Of a DNA stretch of 64,000 bases, positions 13,033-43,622 are shown in pieces. Both the position numbers and the translations under genes were made by a program. Every line of letters starts with the position of its first letter. The first letter of the stretch is position 1. The DNA comes from an uncultured virus (IMG/VR IMGVR_UViG_3300042691_052636) (lineage: Duplodnaviria; Heunggongvirae; Uroviricota; Caudoviricetes): the IMG/VR virus record IMGVR_UViG_3300042691_052636; one strand, 5' to 3'. A model generated the notes under the pieces. The model did not search any database. It saw only the letters and a list, made by a program, of their open reading frames with translations, and had not been told where the DNA came from.

Positions 13033-13484
13033 TGGTTAAAATCTACTTAGACGACTTAAGAACCCCTGTTGATCAAACTTGGATTGTTTGTAGGAACTAC
13101 GACGAATTTGTAAAAAAAGTTGATGAAATAGGGTTTGCTAAAATAAACACTATATCGTTGGATCATGACCTGGGTGATACTGCTATGCAGGAATACTTTA
13201 GAAACGTATCTAAAAACTACGTTTTGGACTATGGAAATATTTCAGAAAAGACTGGTTATGATTGTGCTAAGTGGTTAGTTGATAAATTTTATCTTGAGAA
13301 TCCAGAGAGGGATGATTTGGAAAGAAAGCACAAAAAACAAACTCCTATAGTTTTTCCCTTAATTTTGGTTCATTCTGCTAACCCAATAGGAGCAGCTAAT
13401 ATTATGGGTTACATTAATAATTTTTTGATGAATGAAGCACAAATCCAGAACTGCAGAAGAATAGACATTCCACACACAATATAA
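13029..13484 (+). CDS. Cyclic-phosphate-processing receiver-like domain protein
   Basis: IYLDDLRTP, ISLDHDLG, TGYDCAKWL, HSANPIG. Confidence 0.75.
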   Translation: MMVKIYLDDLRTPVDQTWIVCRNYDEFVKKVDEIGFAKINTISLDHDLGDTAMQEYFRNVSKNYVLDYGNISEKTGYDCAKWLVDKFYLENPERDDLERKHKKQTPIVFPLILVHSANPIGAANIMGYINNFLMNEAQIQNCRRIDIPHTI

Positions 13485-13495
13485 ATATATAGATT

Positions 13496-13816
13496 ATGGA
13501 TTTTTTAAAAAGACTTTCTTCAGCCATCGTATTAGCCACTTTATTGGCACTTCCCCTTGCTGTTTTGGAGTCTTTTTGTGTTTATTCCATTGTTTATTTT
13601 TATGAAATTCCTTATTTAAACACTTTTAAGTACTATCAAATTTTAGGATTGAGTTTTGTATTAATGATGACAAGAAACAGAATAAAGATAGGTGAGAGGG
13701 ATCAAAACATCAAGGATTTTTATAACGAAATAATAGACCCAAGTATGAATAGATTATTTAGAATAATCTTTGTTTGGGTGGTTGCAATAAGTATTCACCA
13801 AATTTTTTTAAGATAA
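13496..13816 (+). CDS. Hypothetical membrane protein
   Basis: About three hydrophobic segments. Confidence 0.6.
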   Translation: MDFLKRLSSAIVLATLLALPLAVLESFCVYSIVYFYEIPYLNTFKYYQILGLSFVLMMTRNRIKIGERDQNIKDFYNEIIDPSMNRLFRIIFVWVVAISIHQIFLR

Positions 13817-13823
13817 GTAAATT

Positions 13824-14351
13824 TTGATCAAGAATTTAGTCACTATAATTATTCCTTGTAGTGACTCATTGTTAAAACTCAAATCAACTATTGAGAGTCT
13901 GGTATTTCAAACAAGAATAAGAGGTACAAGGGTTTTAGTTGCTGACTTCGGTTCTAAAGATGGGTCAATTCAATATGCCCAACAAGTTAGCAGTGAATTA
14001 CGAAATACTTTAGTTGTTGAACCTTTCGATTTCAAAGGAGAAAGGGATAAGGTGTTTTCTTCTGTTACAACACCTTATGTTTTTTATATTGCTCCAGGAA
14101 AAACTTTTGATGACAGAGATTTCATTATGGATAATTTGAACAAAACCTCAAAAATAAAGACACCTATAGTTTACACTGAGGAAAATGTCTTTGGAACATT
14201 ACTAAGGAGATTTAAGAGAGATAGTGAAAAAAGAGAAAACGTTGCACTGGTGGGACTAAAAAATACATTGGAAAATATTTCCTTTATTGTGCAAGGAGAT
14301 AAAATCAATGTAGATTTATCAGAGATTAAAACTAAAACTGTAAAAATATAA
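13824..14351 (+). CDS. Short, divergent glycosyltransferase family 2-like protein
   Basis: VTIIIP, VLVADFGSKDGS, VTTPYVFYI; the usual DxD motif is not evident. Confidence 0.55.
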   Translation: MIKNLVTIIIPCSDSLLKLKSTIESLVFQTRIRGTRVLVADFGSKDGSIQYAQQVSSELRNTLVVEPFDFKGERDKVFSSVTTPYVFYIAPGKTFDDRDFIMDNLNKTSKIKTPIVYTEENVFGTLLRRFKRDSEKRENVALVGLKNTLENISFIVQGDKINVDLSEIKTKTVKI

Positions 14352-14778: not shown

Positions 14779-15072
14779 TTAAACTGCAAGGTCCTTAATA
14801 TCCTTACATGCTTGGGCTTTTTCATACATTTCCTGCTCAACAAAGAAATTTAAAGCCTTTTCCATGGCAGTTTTGACGTCTTTTTTGTTCATGTATATTT
14901 TTGCATACACATCATCATTCCAATAGAATTCAAACAGTATTTCTTGCTCTAAATGTAAATTACTTACTAATAATGAAGCTGTTTCAACTGATCTTTCATA
15001 CACCTTTGCTCTATTCGTTGTGAACCAATCTTCAAGATTTTCTGGATTTACTTTATTTTTAATTACTGTCAT
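14779..15072 (-). CDS. Hypothetical protein with C-terminal UVR (UvrB/UvrC-like) motif
   Basis: ALNFFVEQEMYEKAQACKD; start uncertain. Confidence 0.6.
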   Translation of the reverse strand: MTVIKNKVNPENLEDWFTTNRAKVYERSVETASLLVSNLHLEQEILFEFYWNDDVYAKIYMNKKDVKTAMEKALNFFVEQEMYEKAQACKDIKDLAV

Positions 15073-15310
15073 GTGTATTTTATTGCCCATTATTGTTTTG
15101 TTCCGAAACAACACTCTTTAAGACACATACAACATAAAACAACCCATATGAAAAATTTATTTAGATCAGCAGAAATTGAAGAACTTGAAGTACTAACTCT
15201 TGAAGAAAAAATGAAATTAGAGCTTCTTTTTGAAGCTTACAAAAAATTTAGCCTCTCTGAATTAGAAGAGAAATTAGGAGGAAATAAATTTACACTTTGA
15301 TAGATAATGT

Positions 15311-15781
15311 GTGAAAAGCTTATTTCTGAAAATATCAAATCTGTTGTGGGCACTTGGCCATTTTTCTTTTAATTATAAAAAGAAAGTCCATTACCTTTTC
15401 TTTACTCCCCTATATGGATTTTTCCCATGGATTTTTAGAAAGAACAGATTCGATATTTTTTTAATTTCTTTACCACTAGATCGGACAGAGATACTTCTCT
15501 ACCTCACTAAAAATTCTGAGTCTATGGTTTTGAATTGGGAGATAAGACAGTGCGGATTAATAGTTGATTTTGGCCATTTCAAAGAGCCCATAAAAAGGAG
15601 AAAGTATAAAGTCACTTTAATAAGGACAAAAGCAACAACGCAACTCACATTAACTAGCTCGAATGTTTTAGAAACAGTCCAAAGTCAAATTATATCTGAT
15701 TACAATTTTTCCTTTATATTTGGGAAAAGGGTTTTAGAAAGAAGCTTTAAAGGACCAATAATTCATGAATCGATAAGATGA
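15311..15781 (+). CDS. Hypothetical protein
   Basis: ORF coupled to the phosphoesterase; start uncertain. Confidence 0.4.
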   Translation: MKSLFLKISNLLWALGHFSFNYKKKVHYLFFTPLYGFFPWIFRKNRFDIFLISLPLDRTEILLYLTKNSESMVLNWEIRQCGLIVDFGHFKEPIKRRKYKVTLIRTKATTQLTLTSSNVLETVQSQIISDYNFSFIFGKRVLERSFKGPIIHESIR

Positions 15782-36998: not shown

Positions 36999-37056
36999 AA
37001 CTTTGTATTACATTAGCGGTATCAAAATAAAACGTTCTTTCATTTCTTATTCTTTT

Positions 37057-37272
37057 TTTCTTGAAGCGGTTTAGAAGGATACTCCACAATTACGCAAAAA
37101 AAGCTGAGTATTAATCCCCAAGATTAGTACAAGGCACAAAGGTTTTAGTAGTGCTACAGAAAAAACGCCTGCAAAGGAAAACCACAGTAGATCGGGTCAT
37201 TATACCGGCCTAGAAATTAGGGTACGACTAGCTAACGTAATTAGCAATCCCTTTTAAAGATTTCTCAAGAAA
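37057..37272 (+). ncRNA. Candidate Y-RNA-like structured RNA 1
   Basis: TTTCTTGA/TCAAGAAA and TTTAGAAGG/CCTTTTAAA stems around an AGCGG/GATTTC internal loop, enclosing a multibranched interior; upstream of TROVE. Confidence 0.6.
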
Positions 37273-37285
37273 CAAAGAAATAACT

Positions 37286-37356
37286 AAATCTGAAGCGGTG
37301 TTTTGGGATACTTCACTTATTATCGAAAAAAACCCAAAACTAATATTCTCGGATTT
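37286..37356 (+). ncRNA. Candidate Y-RNA-like structured RNA 2
   Basis: AAATCTGA/TCGGATTT and GTTTTGGG/CCCAAAAC stems; same TGAAGCGGT..GGATACTYCAC..TTCTC motif as RNA 1; followed by a T run. Confidence 0.6.
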
Positions 37357-37390
37357 TTTTTAAAGACTAGCAATAGTCATAAAAATTCTG

Positions 37391-37431
37391 GGATCTAAGT
37401 GTGAGATTTTTCACATTCTAGATCCTTTTTT
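37391..37431 (+). terminator. Intrinsic terminator-like hairpin between ncRNAs and TROVE gene
   Basis: GGATCTA-AGTGTGA...TCACATT-C-TAGATCC followed by TTTTTT. Confidence 0.7.
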
Positions 37432-37457
37432 ATTGTGTAATTTAAACCACAACTCTC

Positions 37458-39080
37458 ATGTCTAAATTAAGCGAATTTGGTATTAAAGAAACAGCTTTGT
37501 CTAGAAAAAACTCTGGAGACAAAGTTCAGAATTTCATGTCAGGAACATCTTACAAGATTTCTCCTTTACAAACATTGAAAATTGTAGCAGCTTCTTCGAT
37601 TTTTGGAGAACCTCAATATTATCGGGATGGGATCAATTCTAATGCTACAATCAAAAATATCTCTACGATTATAGACCATTCAATTTTCCCGGATCTATTC
37701 AAAGATAAAAGATCTGCAGTGGATGTTTTTGAGCAGGCAATCGACAATTCGCTTTCTTTTGATTTCCAAGCTACATTGGACTTAGCCCTAGAACTCAGGA
37801 CTGAATATCTTATGAGATTAAACCCTTCGGTTATATTTGTTAGGGCACTTTCTCACGAGAGCAGGAAATCTTTTAATGAGATGAATCCTGGTTATATGAA
37901 AAACATCGGGAAGAAAATTGCAGAAAGACCTGATGACTTAACTAACCAGTTTGACTATTACATGTTTAAGAATGGAACAAAATCAAAGCTTCCATCCTTA
38001 ATTAAACGTACATGGGCGGAAAGATTAGAAGAGTATAGCAGATATCAGCTCAACAAGTACAAGGGCAAAAAACTCATTGACCTAGTAAGAATATCTCATG
38101 CTTCTAATGATGACATCAGTGAGCTTATGACAACTGGTAAGCTCAATATTTTAGAAACTGAAATGACCTGGGAAAGTCTTAAGTCTGCAGGTAAAAACTG
38201 GCAAGAGATTTTGAAGCAAATTACAGTTCCTCATATGGCTCTTCTGAAAAACCTAAGAGGAATTTTCAAAGAGATATCAGATCTTGATACCACCGTTAAA
38301 ATTCTAGATGGATTAAAATCTGGAGTTTTGAAAGGAAAGCAATTCCCATTTAGATATTGGTCAGCTTATAAAGCAGTTAAGTCTTCAGAAGAAGTAAACA
38401 ACAAAAGACTAATACTTGATGCTTTAGAAGAATGCTTAGATATAGCAGTAGCAAATATGCCTAAGCTTAAGGGTAAAGTTGCTTGTCTGTCTGACAATTC
38501 AGGTTCTGCTTGGGGATCTTGTCAGAGTGAATATGGATCAGTTACCGTAGCAGAAATTGCAAACCTTTCTTCTTTAATTACTGCAATGCAAGCAGACCAA
38601 GGTCTTGTTGGTGTTTTTGGTGATAAACTTTCATTAGAAGAGATCTCTAAAAGAAATGGTCTACTCACACAACTGGAAGAGACATCACAAAGAGGAAAAA
38701 TGCAAGGGGGATCTACTGAGAATGGTATTTGGGTATTTTGGGATCAAGCCATCACAGAAAAGATTCACTACGATACGGTCTTCATTTACTCTGATATGCA
38801 AGCGGGACACGGTGGTCTTTTCGGATTTTCAAACACTGTTGGCAGATCTCCTTATGGAACAACTAGTTCATCCACACACGTAGATGTTTTAAAGATGGTT
38901 GAAGTTTACAGAAAGAAGGTGAATCCTAAAGTAAATGTCTTCTCTGTTCAGGTTGCTGGATACGATAATTCAGTTCTTCCAGAAAATCTTTATAGAGGTG
39001 CAATTTTATCAGGTTGGACAGGAAAAGAACCTGTCTTTGCAAAAGCAATTATTGACATTTGGGATTCTATAGAATCCTGA
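37458..39080 (+). CDS. TROVE domain (Ro60/Rsr-like) RNA-binding protein with vWA domain
   Basis: NFMSG, GEPQYY, LIDLVRISH, ETEMTWE, PHMALLKNLR, QFPFRYWSAY, MIDAS-like DNSGS, YSDMQ. Confidence 0.9.
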   Translation: MSKLSEFGIKETALSRKNSGDKVQNFMSGTSYKISPLQTLKIVAASSIFGEPQYYRDGINSNATIKNISTIIDHSIFPDLFKDKRSAVDVFEQAIDNSLSFDFQATLDLALELRTEYLMRLNPSVIFVRALSHESRKSFNEMNPGYMKNIGKKIAERPDDLTNQFDYYMFKNGTKSKLPSLIKRTWAERLEEYSRYQLNKYKGKKLIDLVRISHASNDDISELMTTGKLNILETEMTWESLKSAGKNWQEILKQITVPHMALLKNLRGIFKEISDLDTTVKILDGLKSGVLKGKQFPFRYWSAYKAVKSSEEVNNKRLILDALEECLDIAVANMPKLKGKVACLSDNSGSAWGSCQSEYGSVTVAEIANLSSLITAMQADQGLVGVFGDKLSLEEISKRNGLLTQLEETSQRGKMQGGSTENGIWVFWDQAITEKIHYDTVFIYSDMQAGHGGLFGFSNTVGRSPYGTTSSSTHVDVLKMVEVYRKKVNPKVNVFSVQVAGYDNSVLPENLYRGAILSGWTGKEPVFAKAIIDIWDSIES

Positions 39081-39100
39081 GTTTTTGTGCCATATCAACC

Positions 39101-39125
39101 AAATCCCGCTCAGGCGGGATTTTTT
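39101..39125 (+). terminator. Intrinsic terminator
   Basis: AAATCCCGC-TCAG-GCGGGATTT plus T run. Confidence 0.85.
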
Positions 39126-39174
39126 GTTTCTCTAAGATACATATGTAGACAAAACTAAATAATCTTATCAAAAC

Positions 39175-39321
39175 ATGGCTAAACCTAAGAAAAGTGAATC
39201 CACTAGTACATTCAGAAAGAAAGCAAAGAAATGTAATAAAGGGATACATTCTAAGTGTAAATCTAGTAAAAACAAAAAATCTAAGAATTACAAAAAAGTT
39301 TACGTTGGCCAGGGAAGATAA
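39175..39321 (+). CDS. Small basic peptide ending in YVGQGR (48 aa)
   Basis: Manual translation MAKPKKSESTSTFRKKAKKCNKGIHSKCKSSKNKKSKNYKKVYVGQGR; resembles small YRGQGR peptides of T4-like phages. Confidence 0.65.
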   Translation: MAKPKKSESTSTFRKKAKKCNKGIHSKCKSSKNKKSKNYKKVYVGQGR

Positions 39322-39342
39322 ATAGATATATAATTAAAAAAG

Positions 39343-39687
39343 ATGAGGCATTTAAAAATATACGAAGATTATGGTTTTGAAACCATGCCAGTTGAAACTA
39401 CTCCAGTTCACTTTGAAGCTGAATCTACCGACATCACCCAAGGTGATGCTTATACCGAGGGAAACTACTTTGTAAATTTTGAAAATTCTGAAGGCATGCC
39501 TACAACAATCGAAATAGGTGGTGCATTAGAACCAGAATACACTGGAGGATCAATGGTTAGCAAAATGGAGATGGTTCCAGATTCTAGTTCAGACGGAAAA
39601 CAGTATTCAATTATTGGTTACTACGAAAAATCTTCAGATATCCCAACAGGATACGATCTTAAGAAAGTTCTAATCGAGGAAGTTTAA
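39343..39687 (+). CDS. Hypothetical protein with capsid-targeting-like N-terminus
   Basis: MRHLKIYEDY after GATATATA. Confidence 0.65.
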   Translation: MRHLKIYEDYGFETMPVETTPVHFEAESTDITQGDAYTEGNYFVNFENSEGMPTTIEIGGALEPEYTGGSMVSKMEMVPDSSSDGKQYSIIGYYEKSSDIPTGYDLKKVLIEEV

Positions 39688-39699
39688 TCAAGCATTTTT

Positions 39700-39996
39700 A
39701 TGGCAATCAAGATTTATTGTGAATTCGATGAATTCAGCTATGAGGAGAAAGATATCTTCTCATACTTTGAAGAAGATGAAATTGAGAGACCAGACTACGA
39801 AGATCTCTGGGATGATCCAGCATCAGATTTAGACAATTTAGCCCTAAACAGAAGCTCAATCAGGGAAGATGCTAATTTTTATATTGTCTGTGATACAGAA
39901 GATGAAGAAATAGCCGAAGATGTTGCATCTTATTTAGGCAAACCAACTAAAATTTTCATCGAAGAACTTCATAAAATATTTTTTTCAGTACTTTAA
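39700..39996 (+). CDS. Hypothetical acidic protein
   Basis: 98 aa ORF. Confidence 0.6.
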   Translation: MAIKIYCEFDEFSYEEKDIFSYFEEDEIERPDYEDLWDDPASDLDNLALNRSSIREDANFYIVCDTEDEEIAEDVASYLGKPTKIFIEELHKIFFSVL

Positions 39997-40001
39997 TTTG
40001 T

Positions 40002-40009
40002 TATCTTTG
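40002..40009 (+). promoter_or_regulatory. Bacteroidota-type -7 promoter element for the tRNA leader
   Basis: TATCTTTG matches TAnnTTTG. Confidence 0.55.
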
Positions 40010-40044
40010 TGAAACAAAAGCATTCACAAAGGTATAAAACACAA

Positions 40045-40104
40045 ATGATAGGAAAATCAATTTCATTAAGGCTAATATTAAGGTCGTTCATAAGACGATT
40101 TTAA
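40045..40104 (+). CDS. Putative attenuator leader peptide MIGKSISLRLILRSFIRRF
   Basis: ATG ATA GGA AAA TCA ATT TCA TTA AGG CTA ATA TTA AGG TCG TTC ATA AGA CGA TTT TAA; A-rich leader; stop overlaps the antiterminator arm. Confidence 0.65.
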   Translation: MIGKSISLRLILRSFIRRF

Positions 40105-40174
40105 AAGGTCCTAATTTTGATATTCCATCTTAAATATATCAAAAACCGGGACCTTTAAAAGTTCCGGTTTTTTT
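40104..40174 (+). promoter_or_regulatory. Attenuator: antiterminator (40104-40156) overlapping intrinsic terminator (40141-40174)
   Basis: AAAGGTCCT/GGGACCTTT plus TTTTGATAT/ATATCAAAA versus AAAAACCGGGAC...GTTCCGGTTTTTTT. Confidence 0.7.
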
Positions 40175-40204
40175 GTTCTTTGAAGTAGTGGTAAAATAAT
40201 TTAA

Positions 40205-40276
40205 GCCCCCGTAGTTCAACGGATAGAACATGTGACTTCTAATCTCAAAATGTGGGTTCGATTCCCGCCAGGGGTA
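40205..40276 (+). tRNA. tRNA-Arg (TCT)
   Basis: Cloverleaf; anticodon loop CTTCTAA; GTGGG-TTCGATT-CCCGC T arm; one mismatch each in acceptor and anticodon stems; no encoded CCA. Confidence 0.85.
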
Positions 40277-40296
40277 CTTTTTATATATAGTTTAGT

Positions 40297-40947
40297 ATGA
40301 ATTGTAAATATTGTAAAGAAGATAAAAATATATTTGGATTAAAAAATCACGAGTCTTATTGCAAAATGAATCCAGAAAGAAAGAGTAAAGCTGGAGAAAA
40401 TAACCCAATGTTTGGAAAAAAATCTAATGCTTCCAATCAATATATAAAATCTAAAGAAATGGGGCTCTCATTTCCTTTATTAGCCCAAGAAACCAGAAAA
40501 AAAATATCAGACTCTAAAAAGGGTGAAAAATGGACACTTGAAAGGAAAAAAAAGCATTCAGAAAAAATGAAAAAAACAGTTCTTGAAAACCCACACTCTT
40601 ATTCAGCTAATAACGTTTCAGGTAGAACTAAAATTTTTGAATATAAGGGATTTAAGCTTAAAGGAAAATGGGAGCTAGATGTAGCAAAATGGCTCGACAT
40701 TCATGAAATACAATGGACAAATAAAATTACAAAACCATTCGACTATTTTTGGATAGGGAATATTCATTACTATTTTCCTGATTTTTATTTGCCAAAAATT
40801 GATGCTTATATCGAGGTAAAAGGCTATGAAAGAGATCGTGATAGAGAAAAGTGGAAATGCGTAAATAATCTTATAATAATCAAAAAAGAGGAGATTGAAC
40901 AGATAAGAAGAGGAATATATGAAATTCCCACAAAATATTTATCATAA
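40297..40947 (+). mobile_element. Free-standing homing-endonuclease-like gene (NUMOD3-like repeats plus PD-(D/E)XK domain) inside the tRNA cluster
   Basis: CKYC..H...C N-terminus, GENNPMFGK, ETRKKISDSKKG, YFPDFYLPKIDAYIEVKG. Confidence 0.75.
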
Positions 40948-40948
40948 A

Positions 40949-41023
40949 GTTCCCTTAGCTCAGTTGGTTAGTAGCAACGGTCTCATAAACCGTAGGTCGT
41001 AGGTTCGATCCCTACAGGGAACA
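40949..41023 (+). tRNA. tRNA with CAT anticodon (Met elongator or lysidine-type Ile2)
   Basis: GTTCCCT/AGGGAAC acceptor, ACGGT-CTCATAA-ACCGT, GTAGG-TTCGATC-CCTAC. Confidence 0.9.
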
Positions 41024-41035
41024 CATTTTTAAAAT

Positions 41036-41111
41036 CGAGACATAGCTCAATGGTAAGAGCAGGATCCTTATACGATCAAGGCTATGAGTTCAAGTCTCAT
41101 TGTCTCGACCA
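41036..41111 (+). tRNA. tRNA-Ile (TAT)
   Basis: CGAGACA/TGTCTCG acceptor plus ACCA, GATC-CTTATAC-GATC anticodon arm, ATGAG-TTCAAGT-CTCAT. Confidence 0.85.
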
Positions 41112-41114
41112 TTT

Positions 41115-41198
41115 GCCCGGGTGGTGGAATTGGTAGTCACGCAGCACTTAAAATGCTGTAACCATTTGGTTGTACGGGTTCGATTCCCGTCCCGGGTA
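41115..41198 (+). tRNA. tRNA-Leu (TAA)
   Basis: GCCCGGG/CCCGGGT acceptor, CAGCA-CTTAAAA-TGCTG, long variable arm, ACGGG-TTCGATT-CCCGT. Confidence 0.92.
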
Positions 41199-41204
41199 CT
41201 TCCT

Positions 41205-41489
41205 TTACATATTCCAAGAAGGATTAGCTACAATTAGCTTTCCGTTCTCAATTCTAGGAATAGGCTTAGTTGAGTAAGCATCATCATATTCTATTTGGTC
41301 AGGATAGAATTTCTGTCCTTGGAACATAATATAATTTTGTTCATCCTCTTCTTTTCCTCTGTGACTCCATCCTTGGCCCTTCATTGAGTCTTGTGCAGCA
41401 TCATCAATAGTAGGATTTCCGAAAATACTATTCCAGAACCCCTCGTTAATCTTGGTTCCAAAATTTCCAAATTTTCTTATGTGTTTCAT
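41205..41489 (-). CDS. Hypothetical protein with capsid-targeting-like N-terminus
   Basis: MKHIRKFGNFGTKINEG. Confidence 0.65.
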   Translation of the reverse strand: MKHIRKFGNFGTKINEGFWNSIFGNPTIDDAAQDSMKGQGWSHRGKEEDEQNYIMFQGQKFYPDQIEYDDAYSTKPIPRIENGKLIVANPSWNM

Positions 41490-41545
41490 TGATTAATTAG
41501 ATGTTTTATATATCTGATTGTGACGAATATGTAATCACAGGTCAC

Positions 41546-41573
41546 AAAAAAAGGGATAGAATTTATCCCTTTT
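41546..41573 (-). terminator. Intrinsic terminator
   Basis: AAAAGGGATA-GAATT-TATCCCTTTT hairpin with A run. Confidence 0.7.
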
Positions 41574-41590
41574 AAATATTGTATTTTTTG

Positions 41591-42994
41591 TTATGCTGAT
41601 AGTTTTTGAACCAATTCTGGGGTGATATCTCCATTTTTTGCTTCTAAACCATACTCTTTCTTGATAGCTTTAATGACTGCTGTTCTGCTTGGTCCTATGA
41701 AGAATTTACTAGTTTTGCCGAAGTTGGATTTTTTCCATTCTTCCATAGCTGATATTTCTTTATTATCAGTAAATTTATCATATATCAAAGAGAAAACCTT
41801 TTTGGTTAGTTCTAGATTTTCACCTGTTGGTGAAGATCCAGTTGCTTTGATCGTTTTTTCTAATTTTAAAGTAGACTCTTTTTTCTCTTCTTCTTTTTTG
41901 TCTTCTGTTTTTTCGACCTTTGAGATAATCTGATCCCCTGTTTTAGCAAAAAGATTTCCTTCCTTATCTTTAAAGGTGTATTTAGCCTCGTCTCCTATAC
42001 CTACTATTTTACTGATTTCCCCCTCAGCTTCAGTTCCATCATCTTTTTTGTATTTAACTGTATCACCAACTTTTAGAGAAGAATGAAATGTGTCTCTTCC
42101 TGCTTTAGCTAAAACTGCATCATCAACGACTTTAGCTTTTTTCTCAAGTTCTGCTATTCCAGTTATCACGCTAGATAAGTCTTCAGCGGTTTTCTTTTCA
42201 ATACCAATTTTGAAAAGCTCATCTTTTTGTATTTTACTAACCTCTTCAGATGTTTTAGCTATTTCTTCACCCAGTTCCTTAATCTTTTCTTTTCTAGCTT
42301 TTTTGTTTTTCATTTTTTCCCACTCTTCTTCAGTTTTCAGAAGCTTGGTAATTTCATCAAATCTTTTTACCACTTCTTCAGCTTTAGCTTTAAGTGTTTC
42401 TGTACTAGGATTAGTTTTCTGAAGCTGCATTTCAGTGTAGGTTGGCTTCATTTGTTGAACCAAATCCTCTCTTTCATCTTCAAATGTTTTCTTTTCGAAT
42501 AGAAGAGGGTAAGTGAACTGCTCAAACATTTGAACGTGGTTTTTACCTAATCCTTGAATATTTTCGTTAGTTCCTTCTTTTTTAGCAATATCTCTATATC
42601 CGAATATTTGTGTAGCTATTGCTGTGTCTATTACCTCTTTCTTACTCTTAGCATCTTCACTTGATGCAACTGAAGTAAATAAATCCCCAATTTTCTTAGC
42701 AAGATCTTTAATACCAGTTTTAACATCTGCATACTTAGCATCAACAGTTTCAGCTACCTTGTTAAGCATAGCGGCCATTTTCTCACCTCTTTTAGCTGGG
42801 TCTTTTTCTTCGTTAACCTCAATCAAATCAGTAACTACATCTTTGTAATTAGGAGACTTTGAAACGAGAAACATATAAAGTTTAGTGTAAGCAGAGATTA
42901 TTTGTGAAATTGTTTTGATTGAAGTTTCGCTTTCATTGATTGTTCCGCTAAGTGTTTCCAAGTAGCTACTAAATCTGAGAATGTTTTTTTCCAT
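41591..42994 (-). CDS. Lys/Glu-rich coiled-coil protein, probable internal virion protein
   Basis: MEKNILRFSSYLE..TINES; GATATATA upstream on minus strand. Confidence 0.7.
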   Translation of the reverse strand: MEKNILRFSSYLETLSGTINESETSIKTISQIISAYTKLYMFLVSKSPNYKDVVTDLIEVNEEKDPAKRGEKMAAMLNKVAETVDAKYADVKTGIKDLAKKIGDLFTSVASSEDAKSKKEVIDTAIATQIFGYRDIAKKEGTNENIQGLGKNHVQMFEQFTYPLLFEKKTFEDEREDLVQQMKPTYTEMQLQKTNPSTETLKAKAEEVVKRFDEITKLLKTEEEWEKMKNKKARKEKIKELGEEIAKTSEEVSKIQKDELFKIGIEKKTAEDLSSVITGIAELEKKAKVVDDAVLAKAGRDTFHSSLKVGDTVKYKKDDGTEAEGEISKIVGIGDEAKYTFKDKEGNLFAKTGDQIISKVEKTEDKKEEEKKESTLKLEKTIKATGSSPTGENLELTKKVFSLIYDKFTDNKEISAMEEWKKSNFGKTSKFFIGPSRTAVIKAIKKEYGLEAKNGDITPELVQKLSA

Positions 42995-43052
42995 TGATGA
43001 TTTTTTTAGTAAAATATATATCCTTTCGGTGCTATTTTTTTATATTTGTATT

Positions 43053-43622
43053 ATGAAAATTCTGTTTTTAGACCATGATGGTGTTATCTGTTTGTCATCA
43101 GAATGGGGAAGTAGATTGAAAAAAACTAAAGCTTACTCTAATCCAAATCCAGGTGGAGAAAGGAGTGTACCAGTTGAATTCAGATTTGATAATTTCAACA
43201 AAAAAGCAATTGGTGTTCTAAATAAAATCCTTTTAGAAACAGATGCTGAAATAGTCGTGAGTTCAGATTGGCAGCACTTCTGTAATCTTGAAGAAATGGG
43301 ATTGTATTATGAAATGCAGGGAATTATAAAAAAACCCATTGCTTTCACCGGAAACATAATTGATCCAGCTAAAGCTACTTGGCACAGAGACTGGGATTCT
43401 GAGGGCACAAGAAGCTTGGAAATTATGACCTGGCTTGAAAGCCATCCTGAAGTAACCAATTGGGTTGCAGTGGACGATCTCAATATGGGTAAGATTGTCA
43501 AATCTTATTCGATGGAATTTATCCACGAATGGGGATTAGAAAATTTTGTCCATACTCCAAGGGGAAATGAAGGAATCAAGCAGGTGGGTATTAAAGAAAA
43601 AATTCTTCGGTTTTTAAAATAA
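43053..43622 (+). CDS. HAD-superfamily phosphatase (Swiss-army-knife RNA repair HAD type)
   Basis: LFLDHDGV, IVVSSDW, RSLEIMTWL, WVAVDD; TATATTTG at 43041. Confidence 0.8.
   Translation: MKILFLDHDGVICLSSEWGSRLKKTKAYSNPNPGGERSVPVEFRFDNFNKKAIGVLNKILLETDAEIVVSSDWQHFCNLEEMGLYYEMQGIIKKPIAFTGNIIDPAKATWHRDWDSEGTRSLEIMTWLESHPEVTNWVAVDDLNMGKIVKSYSMEFIHEWGLENFVHTPRGNEGIKQVGIKEKILRFLK

Follow-up and report, generated by a model that had tools for sequence, protein, structure and literature searches.

Leaders listing the codons of the tRNA arrays behind them: a likely ribosome-mediated attenuator in uncultured jumbo phages

The DNA studied here, called the window throughout, is a stretch of 64,000 nucleotides with 35% G+C, taken from a 174,942-bp IMG/VR virus record (IMGVR_UViG_3300042691_052636, Caudoviricetes) that is estimated to be 63% complete. 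At positions 40002-41198 a short leader open reading frame (ORF) and an intrinsic terminator stand in front of a tRNA array, and this arrangement, a candidate attenuator, is the subject of the present work. All of its parts lie on the plus strand. The promoter-like box TATCTTTG (TAnnTTTG) occupies 40002-40009 and, with the GAAAC after it (40002-40015), begins 6 nt past the stop codon of an upstream 98-aa ORF. The leader ORF (40045-40104) has its ATG at 40045, comprises 19 codons followed by a TAA (40102-40104), and encodes the peptide MIGKSISLRLILRSFIRRF; its codons 8-17, TTA AGG CTA ATA TTA AGG TCG TTC ATA AGA (40066-40095), form the presumed regulatory block. In the minimum free energy (MFE) fold, a long imperfect hairpin (segment 1:2, 40047-40129) joins the first half of the leader with sequence past the stop codon and contains an inner leader hairpin (40078-40088/40094-40104). 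The antiterminator (segment 2:3, 40104-40156) consists of an outer helix (40104-40112/40148-40156) and an inner hairpin (40115-40123/40136-40144). The terminator (segment 3:4, 40141-40174) has a stem of 12 pairs, five of them G-C (40141-40152/40161-40172), a loop of 8 and a run of seven T (T-run, 40168-40174), and is followed by a box, GTTCTTTGAAG (40175-40185), that is conserved in the leaders termed type A below. Thirty nucleotides past the T-run begins tRNA-Arg(tct) (40205-40277, Rfam 60.6 bits), the first gene behind the terminator; tRNA(cat) (40949-41024), tRNA-Ile(tat) (41036-41111) and tRNA-Leu(taa) (41115-41199) come after a 216-aa endonuclease ORF with a NUMOD3 motif that lies within the array (40297-40947; phrog_15137 at 5.9e-37, PF07460). 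The four tRNAs, called by ARAGORN and scored by Rfam at 56.9-65.2 bits, are the only ones in the whole 175-kb record. A preliminary description, made from the sequence alone, had placed the TAnnTTTG element, the leader with its codon block, the inner hairpin, the antiterminator and the terminator at these positions, upstream of the tRNAs, and all of them were found there.

Seven of the ten codons in the block are TTA, ATA or AGR, which are read by the downstream tRNAs. Taking the whole leader, 8 of 18 codons are read by the four tRNAs of the genome, against 9.5% in 172 long ORFs (binomial P = 1.2e-4), and a count of eight is reached by 19 of 46,478 in-gene windows of 18 codons; the enrichment over genome codon usage, which the preliminary description proposed to test, is thus present. 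The leader of the related locus L008 differs from that of the window by 2 synonymous and 5 non-synonymous changes, and both retain 8 of 18 AGR/ATA/TTR codons (hand count).

Relatives of this leader, designated type A, were collected in scans that used either the flanking 98-aa ORF or the upstream-encoded Ro protein (50 loci with the latter), which gave 18 distinct sequences, aligned as A6. They come from uncultured Ro-encoding jumbo phages, and many of them are closely related; in the phages found through the 98-aa ORF, the identity of that protein to the one in the window falls to 45%. All 18 share one order of parts: TAnnTTTG-N1-2-GAAAC, an A-rich spacer, ATG, the ORF, an AU-rich hairpin, a GC terminator, a T-run, the box G(T/G/C)TCTTTGA and tRNAs. 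The ATG and the open frame are kept in 17 of 18, with 19 or 22-24 codons and with TAA, TAG or TGA at one of two stop positions. No stop interrupts frame 0 in any of the 18, frame +1 carries 1-6 stops in every sequence, and frame +2 is open in 7. In most relatives the array consists of Ser-tga, Arg-tct, Pro-tgg, Ile-tat, cat and Leu-taa. The consensus of the leader, M-x4-N-I-L-P-S-I-L-R-P-S-I-R-R-S, corresponds to this set: in the 19-codon form, codons 7-19 specify nothing other than the five amino acids served by elongator tRNAs of the type-A array (Ile, Leu, Pro, Ser and Arg), and the variable positions switch between TTA, ATA and TCN. In the clade of the window, tRNA-Ser and tRNA-Pro were not seen in the visible part, and the leaders have 0-1 Pro codons, against 2-4 in other type-A leaders. 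A 1-nt indel just 5' of AAGGTCC separates the 19-codon from the 24-codon form, and in both the stop codon lies beside or just past segment 2; because of this indel, we count the conserved C-terminal "KVLC" as conservation of the RNA (segment 2) and not of the peptide. A hexamer TATAA[ATC] stands exactly 6 nt 5' of the ATG in 17 of 18 type-A leaders (40033-40038 in the window), a geometry that would also fit the -10 box of a leaderless mRNA.

Five further leader types were recognised upstream of other tRNA arrays, in Ro-phage loci and in an IMG/VR scan for the shared promoter motif. A 16-letter promoter scan returned mostly chance matches (a tRNA downstream in 3 of 80 fetched loci); with a 20-letter pattern 58 loci were obtained, 17 of which (12 distinct) had a leader and a terminator. 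Type A, with the consensus leader NILPSILRPSIRRS, precedes the six-tRNA array named above. Type B (leaders MNTVIRIERREEANREVGCLTIV and MTKATTYIVLTHREERERYLTNSRSGCRI, blocks IRIERREE or HREERER) precedes Glu-ttc and Arg-tct, and type C (block WHHISNSNSNRINSS, example leader MKNWHHISNSNSNRINSSDYMRCVLS...) stands before His-gtg, one to three copies of Asn-gtt, Ile-gat, Trp-cca, Ser-gct and Arg-acg. Type D (block LFVMTLTVLFQFLQT, example leader MKNLTNILFVMTLTVLFQFLQTELGFLCLS) belongs to Gln-ttg, Phe-gaa, Thr-tgt, Val-tac, Leu-tag and Leu-taa, and type E (block YTYQPSTPKAGK..GC, leader MRKNYTYQPSTPKAGKVADKGCDTLNGCGMYNSVS) to Tyr, Pro, Gly, Ala, Cys and Lys. Type F, represented by MKHFLNIAIDFQLRKEDDLLEDTIKCQRK and six others, is rich in E and D and stands before Glu-ttc, Asp-gtc and cat, the second tRNA sub-cluster of type-A phages. 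An ATG and an open frame were also found in 12 of 12 leaders of types B-D, in 7 of 7 of type F and in the single type-E leader. At the N-terminus the leaders have the motif MKN.-NI(L/S) in common, and their segment 2 contains TGT; the six types probably have one origin, with middle blocks that were retuned.

As the decisive test, one leader per type was scored against all six arrays in a 6x6 cross-table. The share of leader codons read by the own array, with its background and z-score, was 0.61 against 0.16 (z 5.2) for type A, 0.32 against 0.09 (z 3.6) for B, 0.45 against 0.16 (z 4.1) for C, 0.62 against 0.19 (z 6.0) for D, 0.38 against 0.22 (z 2.4) for E and 0.21 against 0.14 (z 1.1) for F, while the off-diagonal z-scores lay between -2.1 and +0.8. 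The own array was the best column for all six types, and the diagonal ranked first among 720 permutations. The covariation of leader codons with anticodon sets that the preliminary description had proposed looking for in related phages is therefore borne out. The match extends to synonymous codon families: Ser AGY codons average 0.06 per leader in type A, which has a Ser-tga array, against 2.6 in type C with its Ser-gct array. Such a match would not be predicted if the peptide itself were the functional product. Glu codons make up 0 of 347 in type A and 3.5 per leader in type B, and Pro codons number 1.8 per leader in type A and 0 in types B-D. One relative, G001 (318 kb, 96% complete), has 22 ARAGORN-called tRNAs in four arrays, and each array is preceded by a promoter, a leader and a terminator. 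Leader types B, D and C belong to three of these arrays; the remaining one (Tyr, Pro, Gly, Ala, Cys, Lys) carries type E, the residue composition of which was predicted from the array prior to reading the sequence, and the sequence agreed with the prediction.

The region 40040-40180 is strongly structured (z = -5.1; none of 200 shuffles was as stable). As free RNA it folds into the long imperfect hairpin 40047-40129 plus the terminator, and when the nascent RNA is cut before the 3' arm of the terminator, the MFE structure is the antiterminator (-18.6 kcal/mol). Among 97 terminator-like hairpins of the genome, that of the window ranks third by the energy gained when its 5' arm pairs upstream. 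Taken as a single locus the structure is suggestive only and not decisive, because for 20 of the 97 hairpins an upstream partner likewise exists for 70% or more of the 5' arm.

In the 18 sequences of A6, the outer helix of the antiterminator is paired in 88.3% of cells, with 4 pairs changed on both sides, a number reached by 3 of 500 shuffles (slid controls 19-63%); the terminator is paired in 97.8%, with 2 pairs changed on both sides (slid controls 24-80%), and the helices of segment 1:2 with the inner hairpin in 84.6%, with 5 such pairs (slid controls 21-40%). Loci L015 and L003 carry matched substitutions across all four segments (alignment column 85 C>T, 124 G>A, 181 C>T, 191 G>A), a chain of changes that is exactly what mutually exclusive helices with shared strands would predict. 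The mutual exclusion of antiterminator and terminator, first noticed in the window alone, is hence conserved and covarying in its relatives. Between segments 2 and 3 a small hairpin persists, although it is formed by unrelated sequences. RNAalifold run on A6 returned the inner hairpin and the terminator only. Across the types, all 37 leaders analysed (A 17, B-D 12, E 1, F 7) have a terminator-type hairpin of -8.2 to -20.3 kcal/mol with a T-run, and in all 37 nascent folds 5-15 nt of the 5' arm of the terminator pair with a segment located -30 to +15 nt from the stop codon; for this segment 2 the range narrows to -10 to +15 nt in types A and F. Segments 2 and 3 are wholly different between leader types, with their complementarity retained.

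We also folded the leaders with a ribosome footprint masked. According to the preliminary description, a ribosome at the stop codon should favour the terminator and a ribosome stalled upstream should release the antiterminator. The former part held: the type-A terminator formed in 16 of 17 free RNAs and in 17 of 17 with the ribosome masked at the stop codon. The latter held in part. With the ribosomal A site on codons ~3-14, the MFE structure flipped to the antiterminator in 10 of 17 type-A leaders; in types B-D it rarely flipped. In the window, the antiterminator is the MFE structure with the ribosome masked on codons 5-12. The equilibrium simulation of stalling was accordingly kept as partial evidence for a switch.

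In the type-B form of L209/L046, tRNA-Glu adjoins the T-run directly (0 nt), and types D and E leave no more than 17 nt ahead of their first tRNA, a gap without a promoter motif, so transcription of those arrays must pass the terminator. A separate promoter in the interval corresponding to 40175-40204, which the preliminary description had named as a finding that would speak against control by the leader, is thereby ruled out by space in these loci; the window, however, retains the conserved box at 40175-40185. This box, G(T/G/C)TCTTTGA(A/C), is nearly invariant among the type-A leaders (18 of 18), is conserved in all 7 of type F and all 5 of type C, and is present in one form of type B. It sits directly past the T-run and 6-27 nt before the first tRNA; neither type D nor type E has it, nor does the L209 form of type B. 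It is without the TA of TAnnTTTG and is unpaired in the RNAalifold consensus. As a recurrent phage promoter it was rejected, since it is not enriched genome-wide (16 found, 12.6 expected), and a sigma-70 scan found no plus-strand promoter at 40175-40204. A pairing of the box with the 5' untranslated region, noticed by eye, was also dropped, its partner being poorly conserved. The box might act as a weak second promoter or as a signal for processing. At the other end of the leader, types other than A carry TTGACA-N-TAnnTTTG. In the window and L010 only, the promoter-like box is overlapped by a strong 12-bp inverted repeat, TATCTTTGTGAA/TTCACAAAGGTA (40002-40013/40023-40034), which could be an operator or a 5' hairpin.

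From the anatomy of the element, its conservation, the covarying alternative pairings and the correspondence between leader codons and arrays, a hypothesis regarding its function may be put forward. We consider it likely that the element is a classical ribosome-mediated attenuator, the regulatory codons of which are those decoded by the tRNAs it controls, so that it operates by negative feedback. A short leader mRNA would be transcribed from the box at 40002, and its middle block would present the codons decoded by the downstream tRNAs (ATA, TTA and AGR here, other sets elsewhere). When decoding is fast, the ribosome would reach the stop codon and cover segment 2 (40104-40112), the terminator at 40141-40174 would form, and transcription would end before tRNA-Arg. 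When charged tRNAs are scarce, the ribosome would stall in the block, segment 2 would be free to pair with the emerging 5' arm of the terminator, and the polymerase would enter the tRNA genes; as tRNA levels rise, the stall would be relieved and the gate would shut. Translation of the leader, stalling, the coupling of transcription and translation, and the supply of tRNAs by read-through are what we infer. We lean, with less assurance, towards a wider version, in which a group of uncultured jumbo phages keeps each tRNA array under its own codon-listing attenuator. Supply would then be modular and driven by demand: only the array matching the decoding capacity missing from the cell, be it through codon-usage mismatch, host shut-off or a tRNA-cleaving defence, would be switched on, and feedback would switch it off again. 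A link to anticodon nucleases in particular is speculation.

Several observations weigh against attenuation as described. Under every stall mask the terminator remains the equilibrium MFE structure in 7 of 17 type-A leaders and in most of types B-D, so the antiterminator would have to win kinetically. In the trp attenuator, by textbook values, the terminator is also more stable at equilibrium, and the antiterminator wins by forming first. A terminating ribosome, taken with a strict footprint, would not reach segment 2 in types C and E, 19-30 nt upstream of the stop codon. The codon enrichment is weak in type F (z = 1.1) and significant only locally in type B, the covariation counts are modest with many sequences being close relatives, and at 63% completeness the tRNA set of the window genome may be incomplete. 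The leader of L011/L012 has four Pro codons, yet no tRNA-Pro was seen within 3 kb. L027 (6993-7181) is the sole type-A case with ATA where other leaders have ATG, which would fit either a unit in decay or a sequencing error; a Ser-like tRNA behind this leader is called by neither ARAGORN nor Rfam. A Ser-tga-like element 5' of tRNA-His in type-C loci and L027 was not counted, as neither program calls it a tRNA. Finally, if the post-terminator box is a separate promoter in types A, C, F and one form of B, the gate may only add to a basal level of expression.

These points leave room for other explanations. The codons might be sensed with another read-out, namely the processing or stability of tRNA precursors or polymerase pausing, perhaps with reversed polarity. 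The match between codons and arrays requires translation and not in itself control of termination, the terminator persists as the equilibrium structure in the leaders just named, and the post-terminator box, conserved as it is, has no assigned role. We nevertheless regard this as unlikely, given that a canonical GC hairpin with a T-run and a covarying alternative pairing is found in every unit, as control of termination predicts, and that segment 2 lies at or near the stop codon in most types. Direct sensing of tRNA without a ribosome, in the manner of a T-box, would mean that free tRNAs bind the codon block through their anticodons, which would stabilise one of the two structures. Antitermination by tRNA status does resemble T-box logic, and the block is partly single-stranded in some folds; but Rfam gave no T-box match at E <= 1 in 39000-42000, where only tRNA reached the gathering score, the conserved ATG, frame and stops have no role in a T-box, and a T-box has a single specifier codon where the blocks here hold 10-17 different ones, which makes this a very unlikely account.

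The leader could also be an independent small gene for a micro-protein, or a structured small RNA ending at 40174, with the tRNAs transcribed from a promoter in the box 40175-40185. The conservation of that box in types A, F and C at a short distance from the first tRNA, the strong structure of the region and the conserved peptide motif NILP..LRPSIRRS all agree with it, but it leaves unexplained why six leader types list the codons of their own arrays and why synonymous families switch with the anticodon. Moreover, the box lacks the TA of TAnnTTTG, does not recur in the genome and gave no sigma-70 hit, and it is missing from types D and E and the L209 form of type B, where the gap of 0-17 nt is too short. 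The C-terminus of the peptide shifts frame between the 19- and 24-codon forms while the RNA sequence stays, and the window and L008 keep their 8 of 18 codons through mostly non-synonymous changes. We find this reading distinctly improbable. Least credible, to the point that we give it almost no weight, is chance, that is, an AT-rich spacer with an ORF and a hairpin before the ordinary terminator of the preceding operon. ATA, TTA and AGA are indeed common codons in this genome, a fifth of its terminator-like hairpins can pair upstream, and frame +2 is open in some leaders. Chance is already contradicted by the comparative data: the architecture is kept in 18 type-A sequences while the flanking 98-aa protein diverges to 45% identity, leaders and arrays match in six of six types, at first rank among the permutations, and the alternative pairing is present in every nascent fold.

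Leader-peptide attenuators are known from the amino-acid biosynthesis operons of Enterobacteria (trpL, hisL, leuL, thrL, ilvL, pheL). The present element resembles the trpL/hisL type in having a leader ORF with regulatory codons, 1:2, 2:3 and 3:4 hairpins and an intrinsic terminator, and, in most types, in a stop codon at or near segment 2, which a ribosome finishing the leader could then cover. It differs in that its target is tRNAs and not enzymes; that its block lists five or six codon families matching the anticodons of the array, where those leaders list one or few amino acids; and that it is phage-borne and modular, with one leader per array and without sequence homology (Rfam Thr_leader RF00506, 21.0 bits against a gathering score of 55; L20_leader RF00558, 26.1 against 58.7). 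In E. coli, the aminoacyl-tRNA synthetase genes pheST are controlled by leader-peptide attenuation. In Streptomyces, as far as described in the excerpted text of PMC8079986, alaL-alaS, thrL-thrS and trpL-trpS are leader-peptide attenuators of synthetase genes, some of them on leaderless mRNAs. Like these synthetase attenuators, so far as that text describes them, the phage leaders would set the supply of a part of the translation apparatus by the decoding speed of a leader rich in cognate codons, and the leaderless mRNAs of some of them may be compared with the TATAA[ATC] close to the ATG in type A. There, the product is a synthetase for one amino acid; here, it is a set of tRNAs, so that the sensor would read the molecule it controls. 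With T-box riboswitches (RF00230) the element shares the principle that tRNA status chooses between terminator and antiterminator upstream of translation-related genes, but a T-box has no ORF and binds tRNA directly by its specifier loop and T-box sequence, whereas here an ATG, a frame and a stop are conserved.

To the best of our knowledge, the regulation of phage tRNA genes is largely unknown, and no leader-peptide attenuation has been reported for tRNA genes generally. The published phage tRNA clusters, in the excerpts of PMC10264068, PMC11555353 and PMC11464382, are seen as codon compensation or as counter-defence against tRNA-cleaving immunity. They are phage-encoded arrays, as is the one studied here, which lies beside the RNA-repair-type genes Ro/TROVE and HAD_SAK_2. 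The excerpted parts of the three papers treat tRNA function, and an account of expression control by leader attenuation was not found in them; in the text of PMC10264068 the words attenuat-, leader, terminator and promoter are all absent. A full-text literature search on whether tRNA genes or arrays are controlled by attenuation or leader peptides gave no description, in agreement with the preliminary description, which knew of no attenuator of phage tRNA genes, though subscription-only papers could hold a precedent; the closest published cases are the synthetase attenuators of PMC8079986. The proposed mechanism is classical, and what is new is its target, the leaders that list several codon families and the organisation of one leader per array.

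If the attenuation proposed here is true, the textbook mechanism would extend to a new class of targets, in which the sensed molecule is the product, and the six leader types would constitute a natural set of swappable sensors with different codon specificities. The leaders would state which codons the phage monitors, and would thus offer a handle on the debate over whether phage tRNAs serve codon compensation or replace tRNAs lost to host shut-off or anticodon nucleases. An annotation rule for metagenomic phages would also follow: a promoter, a leader with the codons of the array, a hairpin, a terminator and tRNAs.

The wider genome context was examined as well. TAnnTTTG is not enriched genome-wide (227 found, 235 expected), with a mild enrichment outside ORFs (40 against 26.6 expected). 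Shine-Dalgarno sites are not enriched in the phage genes (17 of 193, against a background of 12.6%), and the regions 5' of the genes are rich in A and poor in G; a leader without a ribosome-binding site is consequently normal here and no argument against its translation. TAnnTTTG, TTGACA-N-TAnnTTTG, the missing Shine-Dalgarno sites and the A-rich upstream regions match what we take to be the promoter and translation-start traits of Bacteroidota, and, read in this way, they point to a host of the Bacteroidota type.

In GenBank phages, blastn of 39000-42000 matched only the endonuclease and tRNA parts, and type-A and type-C leader DNA had no meaningful match in the GenBank phage collection. A search of sequencing runs listed none of RNA; the contigs of four runs matched mostly tRNA parts or came from a relative of ~81% identity. 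The Ro/TROVE-type RNA-binding protein (37458-39080; phrog_850 at 6e-44, PF05731) is encoded upstream of the leader, followed by two small ORFs without assigned function. The nearest cultured Ro protein is that of Bacillus phage G (50% identity), and upstream of the two tRNAs examined in that phage (Arg-tct, Gly-tcc) no codon-matched leader with a terminator was seen. Downstream of the array lies a HAD_SAK_2 domain protein of the RNA-repair "Swiss Army Knife" family (42981-43622, 2.4e-19), which together with Ro gives the neighbourhood an RNA-repair theme. Bacterial Ro genes usually adjoin Y RNA genes, and a 460-nt ORF-free stretch 5' of the Ro/TROVE gene (36999-37457), which contains the repeated GAAGCGGT at 37064 and 37291 and a terminator-like hairpin at 37391-37430, is a candidate for a Y RNA; an Rfam scan upstream of the Ro gene found no family besides tRNA at gathering score, and the z-score of the fold is only -1.9.

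As the NUMOD3 endonuclease ORF does in the window, ORFs occupy similar positions, within or in front of tRNA arrays, in L024, in L048/L201 and in G001 (13047-13895). After its second array, G001 also has a GC-richer structured stretch (L245, G001 14840-15459) with three tRNA-like elements carrying inserts of ~25-30 nt; they are scored by the Rfam tRNA model and not called by ARAGORN, and a leader of their own was not seen. In more distant Ro-encoding phages, ARAGORN called suppressor-type tRNAs with the anticodon tta (L045, L047, L056, L064) or cta (L055), which hints at a reassignment of stop codons in those phages.

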